From Eledone cirrhosa (Eukaryota), in assembly GCA_964016885.1 (NCBI GenBank), contig OZ024740.1:118792001-118856000 (forward strand): a stretch of DNA of 64,000 bases, given 5' to 3'. Shown piece after piece: positions 21,842 to 47,730 of the stretch. A program made the translations under genes and the position numbers. Within the stretch, counting starts at the first letter, position 1. Each line of letters opens with the position of its first letter. Under the pieces are notes generated by a model. The model was given only the letters and a program-made list of their open reading frames with translations, was not told the DNA's origin and ran no database searches.

Positions 21842-21980
21842 CATTATTTCTGAAGACAGCATATATATGTGAAGGTATGTATATTCTCTTTGATAGTTTG
21901 TATAATTTTGTACATAGATCTTTTGAATATGCATACTAATTCTAACACATATATGTCCTAGAAACGATCGTAAAATAATG
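21842..21980 (+). ncRNA. Type I hammerhead ribozyme with long stem II
   Basis: cattattt-CTGAAGA-[cagcatatatatgtg...cacatatatgtccta]-GAAA-cgatcg-TA-aaataatg. Stem I is 8 bp, stem III is palindromic and the cleavage triplet is GUA. Confidence 0.75.
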
Positions 21981-22374
21981 AACTTTTTTTGTTTAATATA
22001 AGGAACTGTTTCTTTGTTTATTCATTATTTTTTTTATATTTTATCTTGACTCTGTATTCCGTTTATCTTTCACCGAAAGTGATTTTTGAATGCATCTCTT
22101 CTTTTCATGATATCCGGATTACATTGAGTTCTTCATACGGATTGAACACTACCGTAAACTTTTGGTAGATTTATCTACATATATATATATATATAAGTAT
22201 GTATGTATGTACATATATATATATATATATGTATGTATGTATGTACATATATATATATATGTATGTATGTACATATATATATATATATATATGTATGTAT
22301 GTACATATATATATATATATATATATATATGTATGTATGTATATATATATATATATATATATATATATATATAT

Positions 22375-22586
22375 GGAGGCACATGAGTTCGTGGTTAGAG
22401 CATTGGCCTTGCAATCGAAAGGTTGTGAGTTCAATTCTCAGATCGGGTGATTTGTTGGTTCCTTGAGCAATACACTTTATTTTATATTGCTCCAGTTTAC
22501 TCAGCTGTAGAAATCAAGCCAGAACCAGTTCTTGTCCCACCCTTGCAAGCAGGGAAAACCAGATGTAAAATGATGATGATGATGAT
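22375..22586 (+). mobile_element. tRNA-derived SINE with RTE-type 3' tail (internally deleted)
   Basis: ggaggcacatg...gtggttagagc A-box, gagttcaattc B-box, ccttgagcaa core and a (GAT)n tail. Confidence 0.8.
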
Positions 22587-22663
22587 ACAAATACCATGTA
22601 TATTTAATATACATACAAATCTCATACATATACACTTCTTATATATACACACACATATATATA

Positions 22664-23630
22664 TCATCAACATCATCATTTAACATCCATCATTCATGGG
22701 TAGGACAGATTGACCCTTAGGGGAAAACAGGTCAGAGATCCATGTTTAGCTCACCCAGGGCAGATTTGGCTTGGTTTTTATAGCTGGGTGCCCTTCCTAC
22801 CATCAACCACATTTATAGCGTGTGCTGGGTGCTTTTTGACAATTTTACCTGCACGACAACATTACAGTTTGTACTGGGCACTTTTTGTCGTGACACGACA
22901 CAACCACTTTACAGTGTGGACTGGGCATCTTTGTCATGTGACTGACACAACCACTCTAGAGTGGGGCCAGGGCACTTTCGTCTTGGGACTAGGAAAGGGG
23001 GAGGAAGCTTGGGGAAATTGTGGACAGGGTAGTTGGGGAGGTATGGCTACCAAGGGAGGTGAATGAGAGGATAGGAGGTTGAGGAAGAAAGGTTGAGGAA
23101 GGGGTTACCTACTAGGTATATACCTGAACCTGAAAATAATAGAGGGATGGTCTTCTGTAAAACTGCGTAGTGCCAGAGGTTGCAGTCCTGTTTCATTGCC
23201 TTTGAAAGGTGTAATTGTGCAAGGTCAGCTTTTATTACATCATCCTTAGACTGCCTAGACCTGCCCACACCATGGCTACCATCAACTCTCATCACTCGGC
23301 ACCTTATTATACAGCTGTCATCCTTTATATGCATCACGTGTCCATACTGCTAATGCAATCTCCTCTCCTGCACACAACAATTGATCTCTCTTATGCCTAA
23401 TTCCTCATACAGTATATCTATACTTTGCCATTCACATATATTGCTATTGCACATTCAGCAAATCATGGAGGCTTCATTTATTTCCAATCTTCGCAGGTCC
23501 ACAGCAAACAGTGCCCAGCTCTCGCTGCAGTGCGAAATTTTATAATATATACATGTATAATACAATCTGCCTTTCATTTTGAGAGAAAACCCTTTTGTAG
23601 TTAGCTCCCCGAACTTTCACCAACCCGATC
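22664..23630 (-). mobile_element. Decayed RTE LINE 3' portion
   Basis: MMHIKDDSCIIRCRVMRVDGSHGVGR ORF remnant plus 3' UTR motifs. Confidence 0.8.
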
Positions 23631-23800
23631 TAGATTAGTTATATAGATATATAACTAAAGATGGTTTTCCAATGTGGATCGGGAAGAAACCATTGTTTAA
23701 TAAGCATGTCAATTTTATATAGGAATGATGTCTAGAGGACTAAAACTGTTTTATCTGTATGAAACCATCAGGAATGTCCTGATGATTTCATATATATATA

Positions 23801-44860: not shown

Positions 44861-44983
44861 ATATATATATATATATATGCAAGCAAGCATGTATATATGT
44901 GTATGTGTGTATGTATATATCTATATATATTGGAGAATAAAGTTAAATAAAAGTCAAATGATTAAAATTTAGCTTCGTTTATT

Positions 44984-45038
44984 ACTGCTATATATATTTC
45001 AGTGACAGCCATCTTTGGCTGTGACCTCTTCAGGCAGT
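44984..45038 (-). ncRNA. Type I hammerhead ribozyme (inverted copy of 47109-47163)
   Basis: Exact reverse complement of 47109-47163. Confidence 0.82.
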
Positions 45039-47108
45039 TTGAATTAGTATGGTATAGACAAGTACATATGTTGTTTAGGTGTATGATATTGTCAATACTC
45101 TGATATGCCCAGTTCCTTGTTGGGTTGTTAATTCACTGGGGAACTGGAGTCATATGAATTCAAACAAACGAATTTTAGTATCACAGGTCCCCTTCTCCTC
45201 TCATTGGTCAGTTATTAGTGTTGTCATTGTTGGAGTTAGCTTAAAAATTGATAAAATGGTAGAAGGGACAAGGTGTTGAAGGAAAAAATATCAAAAAATG
45301 TGTCAAACTTCCCATTGTTCAGTTCTGAGAGCATTCCTCAGTCAGAAGTCTATAGAATTCTTTCTGGGGTGAGGCTCCCTGTAGTGTTTATGCCTGCTAT
45401 TGTTCAGTACATTTGACCTCCACCATTATTTTGGTACTGTTATTGTTGTAGTGGTCAGCTTATATCTTGCTGCTGCTAACAATTTAGAAGTATTCAGTTT
45501 GTGTTTTCTCTTCATCCCACCCGCCACCATCGTAGTGGTGGTGGCGGGGGGGGGGGGGGGTTATTTCATGTATATGAAGAAATATAAGGCAATAAATGAA
45601 GAAAACAGAAGATAAATAAATAATGTAATAAAATAAAATAATTAATATAATTTGTGTAATTTGAAAATAAATAAATAAATAGAGAATAAAGAATAAAGAG
45701 TAAATGAGAGATTGGTGAAAAAGTAATGATAATGTATATGGAGAAGTGAGAAATAATGTAGGATAAAGTGTGTGTGTGTGTGTGCTATAACCAATCTCAA
45801 GGTCAGAATATGTTGGATAGATTGGTATGATACAAGATGTTAAGATGAGATATTCAATGTGTTTGTGTTATAATCTATCTCAACTTAAAATAAATATAAA
45901 TATAAGGTTATACAGTGAAGAGGGCAGAAAACAAATAACAAATTAATATAGAGAAATCAAGATTTAAGATTGGAACTTTAAAGTCAGAAATCTGGTAAAT
46001 TAAAAGTGTTTGTGTTATAGATGTTGGCCAGATTATTATGGCTGTGACCCTCGAGATACTAAGAGGTGGAAGCGGCCTGATAGCCTAGAGACAGAATCGG
46101 ACACAGCCATAATAATCTGGCCAACATCTATAACACAAACACTTTTAATTTACCAGATTTCTGACTTTAAAGTTCCAATCTTAAATCTTGATTTCTCTAT
46201 ATTAATTTGTTATTTGTTTTCTGCCCTCTTCACTGTATAACCTTATATTTATATTTATTTTAAGTTGAGATAGATTATAACACAAACACATTGAATATCT
46301 CATCTTAACATCTTGTATCATACCAATCTATCCAACATATTCTGACCTTGAGATTGGTTATAGCACACACACACACACACTTTATCCTACATTATTTCTC
46401 ACTTCTCCATATACATTATCATTACTTTTTCACCAATCTCTCATTTACTCTTTATTCTTTATTCTCTATTTATTTATTTATTTTCAAATTACACAAATTA
46501 TATTAATTATTTTATTTTATTATATTATTTATTTATCTTCTGTTTTCTTCATTTATTGCCTTATATTTCTTCATATACATGAAATACCCCCCCCCCTCCC
46601 GCCACCACCACTACGGTGGTGGCGGGTGGGATGAAGAGAAAACACAAACTGAATACTTCTAAATTGTTAGCAGCAGCAAGATATAAGCTGACCACTACAA
46701 CAACAACAGTACCAAAATAATGGTGGAGGTCAAATGTACTGAGCAATAGCAGGCATAAACACTACAGGGAGCCTCACCCCAGAAAGAATTCTATAGACTT
46801 CTGACTGAGGAATGCTCTCAGAACTGAACAATGGGAAGTTTGACACATTTTTTGATATTTTGTTCCTTCAACACCTTGTCCCTTCTACCATTTTATCAAT
46901 TTTTAAGCTAACTCCAACAATGACAACACTAATAACTGACCAATGAGAGGAGAAGGGGACCTGTGACACTAAAATTCGTTTGTTTGAATTCATATGACTC
47001 CAGTTCCCCAGTGAATTAACAACCCAACAAGGAACTGGGCATATCAGAGTATTGACAATATCATACACCTAAACAACATATGTACTTGTCTATACCATAC
47101 TAATTCAA

Positions 47109-47163
47109 ACTGCCTGAAGAGGTCACAGCCAAAGATGGCTGTCACTGAAATATATATAGCAGT
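47109..47163 (+). ncRNA. Type I hammerhead ribozyme
   Basis: actgc-CTGAAGA-ggtcacagcca aaga tggctgtcact-GAAA-tatata-TA-gcagt. Confidence 0.85.
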
Positions 47164-47658
47164 AATAAACGAAGCTAAATTTTAATCATTTGACTTTTAT
47201 TTAACTTTATTTTACACTACTCCGGAGTAACCAAACCAACCTGCGCACTTCGTCGAGTGCTCCAGCCTGCATACTGAGGTGTTGGTATACAACCAACATA
47301 AACTCTAAATCTATATTGGAGAATATATGGTTTTGTCAACAATTCCTATGAAACTGCTAGAAAATCCAACTTATACCATATATTAAAATATATAAATTAC
47401 CTCTTGGGCTACATATCGAGGCTTATTCTTTCAAAATCTCAAAATCACACTGAAGTAGACATATACATATTCTCCTGTATCAGAAATTGTATGTATAGTC
47501 TATCAGTGATGACAGGTTGTAATGGAAAACGGAATACATGTGATTTTGTCTACCTAGTTTAAGCTATTGCTAATTCCCTAAAATGTCAATGGTATTTATT
47601 AATATATATATATATTATTCAACATATTAATAAATGGAGACATTTACATAATCAAAGT

Positions 47659-47730
47659 ATATGTTTTATTATATATATTTCAGAGGTACTGTGCTGTTTT
47701 TTCAGTACGTCCTCATCAGATAAAATATAT
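47659..47730 (-). ncRNA. Type I hammerhead ribozyme
   Basis: atatattttat-CTGATGA-ggacgtactg...cagtacctct-GAAA-tatata-TA-ataaaacatat. Confidence 0.83.

Follow-up and report, generated by a model that had tools for sequence, protein, structure and literature searches.

We analysed a 64,000-nucleotide stretch of the Eledone cirrhosa genome (contig OZ024740.1, positions 118,792,001 to 118,856,000, forward strand; hereafter the window). It contains five sequence-divergent families of hammerhead ribozyme that share two opposed cytosines (C·C) at the fourth step of stem II (step 4), counted outward from the core, and that almost certainly sit at the 3′ ends of Penelope-like elements (PLEs). An earlier note, made from the sequence letters, had listed five such hammerheads with their positions and stem II pairs. 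A scan of both strands of the window re-found all five as described, together with two inverted copies that the count in the note had missed, with cores at 18076 (−) and 45033 (−). A broader scan returned 10 motifs in total, 7 of them C·C copies from the five families. Applied to 20 shuffled windows, the broader scan gave 0–1 motifs each and no C·C in any of them.

Structure of the C·C hammerheads

Each of the five sites holds a full type I hammerhead motif, open at stem I (Table 1). The core residues C3U4G5A6N7G8A9, G12A13A14, the pair A15.1–U16.1 and H17 are intact in 5/5 sites (CUGANGA...GAAA...UH). Stem I measures 5–9 base pairs (bp), and stem II begins without an extra base after A9 in all five. 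Stem II continues for 6–11 bp beyond the C·C to an apical loop of 4 to ~80 nucleotides (nt); it is longest in family 1, with 11 bp followed by a long loop II, and carries an additional G·G at step 8 in family 2. The stem III insert is 6 nt long in 5/5 sites and reads CGATCG in family 1, TATGTA in families 2 and 3, and TATATA in families 4 and 5. The inserts had been described as self-complementary, which holds for TATGTA only through tandem G·U pairs. As a monomer, stem III forms only 2–3 weak pairs, and the computed duplex energies of the stem III 8-mers range from −2.2 to −10 kcal/mol.

Table 1 Hammerheads, coding remnants and fold-back insertions in the window
Feature	Position	Strand	Details
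Hammerhead family 1	21841..21981	+	C·A pair 1; C·C 21860/21957; predicted cut after 21972
Hammerhead family 1, inverted second copy	17945..18085	−	C·C 18066/17969 (core 18076)
Hammerhead family 2	31126..31190	−	A-U pair 1; C·C 31172/31149; predicted cut after 31134
Hammerhead family 3	36703..36766	+	U·U pair 1; C·C 36718/36746; predicted cut after 36761
Hammerhead family 4	47109..47163	+	G·U pair 1; C·C 47124/47143; predicted cut after 47158
Hammerhead family 4, inverted second copy	44984..45038	−	Sequence identical to first copy (core 45033)
Hammerhead family 5	47664..47725	−	G·U pair 1 here; C·C 47709/47685; predicted cut after 47670
Reverse transcriptase (RT) + GIY-YIG gene, Hydra-clade Penelope-like by its motifs, broken (stops, frameshifts)	32781..34937	−	1.6 kb upstream of family 2 hammerhead, same strand
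Fold-back insertion with family 1	17882..22175		Arms 17882–19449 / 20433–22044, 94% alike
Fold-back insertion with family 4	44928..47316		Arms 99% complementary
Hammerhead without C·C	47986..48047 (47993)	+	C·A pair 1; long unbroken stem II; 7-nt stem III
Second broken Hydra-clade gene remnant	53882–55504	−	
Worn hammerhead	~53505–53550	−	~300 nt downstream of second Hydra remnant; 4-bp stem II; CGTACG stem III (6-nt); no C·C

Conservation of the C·C mismatch

To describe covariation, we aligned four of the five sites, omitting family 1 because its loop II is long. Covariation is seen in the stems, with a score of 0.833 against 0.407 ± 0.074 for shuffled alignments (0/500 shuffles as high) and at most 0.27 for slid-alignment controls. 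Both-sided changes occur in 10/16 pairs, and the C·C column is unpaired in 4/4 aligned sites, in agreement with the claim of a C·C at step 4 with covarying neighbours. Across all five families, both C columns are invariant (5/5), compared with 0/16 of the other stem II columns, over which mean identity is 39%. The upstream flanks are alignable no better than shuffles in 10/10 family pairs. On a star tree, we estimated a value of 0.004 for two given columns and of ~0.04 over nine steps.

As an outgroup, we used 77 metagenome loci of related elements, taken from the best 80 of at least 338 confirmed. A sense-strand hammerhead was present in 39 of these loci, and none of the 39 had a C·C. Where the outgroup stem II is long, step 4 is paired in 23/23 cases, and no C·C occurs at steps 2–8. 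The outgroup stem III inserts measure 7–8 nt in 34/39 motifs and 6 nt in 2/39. In the window families, the C·C accompanies a shortened, 6-nt stem III. Among long-stem families, 5/6 in the window and 0/23 in the outgroup carry the C·C (p = 5e-5), a value that describes rather than tests the difference, since the five families are kin. Window hammerheads without the C·C (47993 and near 53550) make it a sub-lineage trait even within this genome. The absence from the related elements of other animals is in line with the proposal of the earlier note that these motifs form a hammerhead subclass. The C·C sets this subgroup apart and has the look of a selected feature; we consider it probable that selection has kept it.

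Wider searches added no further case. A covariance model built from the four aligned sites found no new C·C family inside the window; against the 77 animal loci its best score was 30.9 bits, and none of the 8 alignments listed contained a C·C. An Rfam scan gave no hammerhead among the best 150 of 217 matches, which contained only hairpin and microsatellite noise. Pattern scans of viral collections matched at least 119 loci, of which 2 had a C·C and none had stems, as expected of chance matches; a further scan matched 22 GTDB and 119 more viral loci, again none with stems.

Elements that carry the motifs

The broken gene upstream of family 2 identifies the kind of element involved. Its product has the motifs RW(R), DKT, CNCX5C, CDLC and CRH, and the consensus of its homologs reads RWK and FDVTMGSYDG; its relatives comprise 270 longer proteins and 666 of similar length. 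According to the description of the group, Hydra-clade PLEs are recognized by an RT with C-terminal GIY-YIG domain and by RWK, DKT, a CxCX5C linker, CxxC and CxH (PMC8557442). By these sequence motifs, the gene belongs to the Hydra clade. An initial assignment to the Nematis clade was rejected on the same motifs, the linker being CxCX5C and not the CX2-5CxxC or CxxC finger of the Nematis and Neptune clades. A Pfam search of the PLE pieces gave nothing useful, and no PLE relatives were found in viral contigs.

The structure of the insertions is consistent with this assignment. The family 2 element ends ~50 nt past its cut site, in (TA)n. Family 1 lies in a fold-back insertion whose right arm has an extra tail to ~22175, followed by (TA)n, a layout of one-arm tail and (TA)n reported for these elements (PMC8557442). 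The family 4 insertion likewise has an added tail on one of its arms; the 3′ end of this family lies near either 47214 or 47316, with (TA)n after each in sequencing reads, resembling the optional PLE tail. Insertion into (TA)n, a 3′ hammerhead and inverted or tailed structures are found for families 1, 2, 4 and 5; the flank of family 3 has a short TA run only. Families 5 and 2 share a 3′ end motif with its spacing (score 38; 0/300 shuffles). No coding remnant was found adjoining families 1, 3, 4 or 5, so their clade is deduced indirectly: the shared end motif (family 5), the layout and the hammerhead type suggest that they, too, are Hydra-clade elements. The earlier attribution of these motifs to PLE hammerheads with a short palindromic stem III is supported by the coding remnant that precedes family 2 and by the fold-back and (TA)n layout.

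We placed the two Hydra-clade remnants of the window in a tree of 44 RT pieces, in which they were combined with 12 proteins from databases and with 30 of the 77 outgroup loci. The remnants, 47% identical to each other, group with P0001 and P0121 (100/94), separate from all 30 outgroup loci. Two smaller traces of such elements are present in the window: a ~30-nt piece of the family 2 3′ end, with no ribozyme, in (TA)n at 26425–26460 (+), and a weak match to the Hydra profile at 10447–10677 (+; E 6e-5).

Variation among reads in families 4 and 5

Reads from runs X1, X5, X6 and X7 were aligned to positions 47060–48080. Family 4 is present in very high copy: in X1, read depth reached ~1e6 for family 4 and 3–5e5 for family 5, compared with 13–19 on the unique flank, pointing to a copy number of the order of ten thousand, with the caution that depth is not itself a copy count. 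The C·C is the majority state in both families. Among the best 40 of 244 variants, none falls in the family 4 ribozyme and none on either C of family 5. C>G stays below 3% everywhere in X1, X5 and X6, and family 4 is accordingly not 'repaired' in these runs; five unplaced C>G variants occur in X7. Indels lie in loop II and, at a frequency of ~4%, in stem I.

A variant at 47682 restores G10.1–C11.1 in family 5, at 36% of depth in X1, 59% in X5 and 694/1634 reads in X7. The statement that pair 1 is never G10.1–C11.1 is therefore accurate for the five window copies and fails for family 5 at large, where 36–59% have G–C. X5 and X6, which bear other organism labels, contain families 4 and 5 at trace depth, with an identical family 4 motif in X6; these traces may be carry-over of DNA from the same organism, and we do not treat them as evidence from other species. 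In X7, reads end sharply at 47102 and 47181; both positions fall on AATT sites, and the ends probably arose in library preparation and are not those of an element.

Other hammerheads and repeats in the window

About eleven hammerhead types occur within the 64 kb. In the family at 47993, reads restore stem I and often lengthen stem II to a perfect 12 bp. Further families without the C·C have their cores at 29906 (+) and 50379 (+). At 55568–56732, three head-to-tail 316-bp units and an inverted partial copy each contain a hammerhead with U3–A8 instead of C3–G8 (cores 55769, 56085, 56401 (−) and 56557 (+)). This tandem is a retrozyme-like or tandem pseudo-LTR (long terminal repeat) arrangement, and it fits the retrozyme layout. 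A 75%-alike relative of the 316-bp repeat lies inverted at 52271–53030 and has a normal C3–G8 core, a 10-nt stem III insert and no C·C (cores 52492 (−) and 52853 (+)). In the outgroup, one Hydra locus (L176) has two antisense tandem hammerheads of canonical look at 2633–2988 (−) next to its own sense motif at 2497–2551 (+); the tandem is probably a retrozyme beside the element.

Other repeats are frequent. RT gene copies resembling long interspersed nuclear elements lie at 3940–5760, 11335–12972, 15501–17759, 40289–41340, 43650–44920 and 58358–60029; they have a C-rich finger insert and a longest open frame of 752 amino acids, and we take them to be RTE-like. A gag-like frame at 62985–63989 (+), with a zinc knuckle at its end, presumably belongs to an LTR retrotransposon that is truncated at the edge of the window. 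Long near-perfect inverted repeats that resemble miniature inverted-repeat transposable elements lie at 27012–27160 and 38978–39171, one of them around a (TA)n core.

Comparison with known hammerheads

The closest counterparts are the Hydra-clade hammerheads of Craig 2021 (PMC8557442), as far as the article and its File S2 describe them. They are likewise type I, lie near the 3′ end of elements that target (TA)n, have a palindromic stem III and frequently a U·U or wobble first pair, and their protein motifs agree with ours. Like the window motifs, they lack an extra base after A9, as do 37/39 outgroup motifs here. They differ in the two features that set the window families apart. In the Hydra rows of File S2, inspected by eye, step 4 is paired in 26/26, including Octopus bimaculoides, and stem III has 7–8 nt, none of them 6 nt as in the window families (PMC8557442).

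The unusual first pair, which the earlier note had counted as part of the novelty, is a known trait of the Hydra clade and ordinary for it. The 39 outgroup motifs begin stem II with U·U (15), G·U (4), A–U (4) or G–C (16), that is, with a non-G–C pair in 23/39. In the Hydra rows of File S2, the first pair is U·U in 14/26 (PMC8557442), and other reports include a non-G–C first pair among natural variants (PMC3088659, PMC7229834).

The minimal hammerheads of Cervera and de la Peña 2014, as presented in that article, also share much with the window motifs: pseudo-LTRs, a long helix II, a palindromic helix III, a dimer model and many divergent families per genome (PMC4209133). Their consensus differs in its extra base after A9, its G10.1–C11.1 pair and little or no helix III (PMC4209133); in the window, the register is symmetric in 5/5 sites and G10.1–C11.1 occurs only in part of family 5. 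Among the 56 motifs aligned there, inspection by eye found no C·C and two other step 4 mismatches (U·U and C·A; PMC4209133). The PLE hammerheads of Lünse, Weinberg and Breaker, as summarized in a review, resemble ours in their PLE link and short palindromic stem III, and they cleave as dimers, as is predicted for ours (PMC6765202).

Extended hammerheads offer a structural likeness. In the account that we consulted for hammerheads from chrysanthemum chlorotic mottle viroid (CChMVd(−)) and Schistosoma, a stem II internal loop can be docked, and C faces C atop stem II in the Schistosoma structure (PMC2632901). Those hammerheads, by contrast, either have a 2:6 loop or draw the second C from stem I, one step farther away, and a U:A reverse Hoogsteen pair is central to them (PMC2632901), whereas the window motifs have a 1×1 loop and no conserved U. 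Non-LTR retrozymes, which are short head-to-tail hammerhead units, are unlike the C·C motifs of the window, which are single or inverted.

Across the literature and supplements searched, we found no description of a conserved C·C in hammerhead stem II. The main text of a 2026 retrozyme preprint, supplements aside, contains none of the words 'stem', 'helix' or 'mismatch', and the giant squid genome paper, in the portion consulted, merely counts hammerhead matches. The hammerhead–PLE association, dimer cleavage and odd first pairs are already known. Judged from sequence comparison, the C·C is a real, probably selected and lineage-specific variant of this known pairing of ribozyme and retroelement.

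A possible docking site in stem II

Base identity, and not merely a mismatch, is kept at step 4, which suggests that the loop is read by something. In the energy model, the C·C costs 5.8–6.7 kcal/mol relative to C–G, and C·A and C·U are equally costly; stability alone is therefore not what singles out the C·C. With an apical loop of variable size lying 6–11 bp beyond the mismatch, the usual loop contact would be out of reach. Published work presumes that the CChMVd(−) hammerhead docks through an internal loop in stem II; in the crystal structure from Schistosoma, a cytosine of stem I is stacked onto stem II opposite the loop cytosine L2.C1 (PMC2632901). By analogy, the C·C loop may be a docking site where stem I packs against stem II. 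We hold this reading tentatively and rank it above protein binding, braking and simple inheritance.

PLE hammerheads with a palindromic stem III are described as weak cutters alone that are thought to act as dimers (PMC4209133, PMC6765202). In the reading preferred here, two motif copies in one transcript would pair through their 8-bp palindromic stem III, and the paired copies would cut the precursor RNA. Docking would fall to the 1×1 C·C loop, which is level with the end of an ordinary 4-bp stem II, and the element's protein might assist. Such a ribozyme would be a new architecture, with one C·C inside a long stem II as the docking point for stem I in place of the loop–loop or pseudoknot contacts of every extended hammerhead described; it would be coupled to an 8-bp dimer-forming stem III, perhaps switched by protein, and would have spread to very high copy in one animal lineage. 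As a whole, we regard this composite as possible but somewhat unlikely.

Stem I provides limited leads. A1.6 and A2.7 are both present in 5/5 families, even where unpaired, and in 9/39 outgroup motifs, a comparison chosen after looking. A base triple (U1.7 with A10.5–U11.5; C1.7 with G10.5–C11.5) fits 4/5 families and is a weak lead, further weakened by the Watson–Crick pairing of U1.7 in three families.

Several observations weigh against docking. A1.6 and A2.7 also occur in the 47993 family, which lacks the C·C, and the flanks are AT-rich. Stem I has 3/16 invariant columns, near chance; U1.7 is present in 3/5 families; and in families 1 and 2 stem I is an unbroken 8–9 bp and offers no unpaired U for the usual contact. 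The minimum-energy fold of the whole motif is clearly a hammerhead only in family 4, with rival pairings in families 2, 3 and 5. The long perfect stems II of sister elements (23/23) show that the C·C is dispensable for the clade. The conservation itself is open to challenge: the five families do not count as independent cases, a single origin followed by slow change could keep both Cs, and the star-tree value is only ~0.04 once nine steps are allowed for. Because the read variants considered are the best 40 of 244, minor C>U or C>A changes, and G>C in family 5, are possible.

The strongest competitor makes the C·C a mark bound by a protein, either the element's RT/endonuclease or a conserved host factor, that folds or activates the ribozyme. 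The Poseidon hammerhead of Anolis, in the experiments reported, cleaved only with the element's protein added (PMC11167929), PLE hammerheads are described as cutting poorly alone (PMC4209133), and base-specific invariance fits recognition by a protein. Against this, the Poseidon RNA 5′ of +20, which includes most of stem II, was reported to be dispensable for insertion (PMC11167929), and the hammerhead of the second Hydra remnant in the window, near 53550, has a short stem II without the C·C. A private RT signal would also be expected to drift; an RNA-intrinsic contact is favoured over the element's own RT because the C·C is fixed while the Hydra RT remnants are only 47% identical. We consider a protein mark unlikely.

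A brake is less likely again. In this scenario, the C·C would leave 2–3 core-proximal pairs and keep the 3′ ribozyme mostly off, so that uncut RNA is reverse-transcribed. The destabilization of ~6 kcal/mol and the weakness of pair 1 fit this idea, as does the extension of genomic copies ~50 nt beyond the cut site, which makes uncut RNA the template; uncut RNA was also the main template reported for Poseidon in vitro (PMC11167929). Any mismatch would serve as a brake, however, C·A and C·U being equal in cost in the model, and U·C is one transition away, yet the C·C is kept in 5/5 families.

Marginally less likely still is a neutral relic of one ancestral element of this host lineage. The five families all come from one genome, the Hydra proteins of the window form one branch apart from the outgroup, and families 3 and 4 are alike at 11/16 other stem II positions. 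Families 3 and 5, on the other hand, are alike at only 2/16, and the flanking pairs have changed repeatedly on both sides of an unpaired C·C that would be free to change if neutral and has not. The remaining alternative, that the selected structure is a G·G on the opposite strand (cDNA or antisense RNA), is very improbable: stem II is computed to be more stable in antisense in 2/5 families but in sense in 3/5, the catalytic core works on the sense strand only, and the recurring G·U pairs and the TATGTA palindrome, which also works only there, point to sense RNA as the functional strand.

The C·C bears on a question left open in the PLE literature consulted, namely why these elements keep poorly cutting hammerheads without recognizable tertiary contacts (PMC4209133, PMC8557442, PMC11167929). 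An invariant two-base feature amid covarying neighbours is a precise handle on that question, and docking, if true, could give the best-studied of ribozymes a peripheral contact of a new kind.

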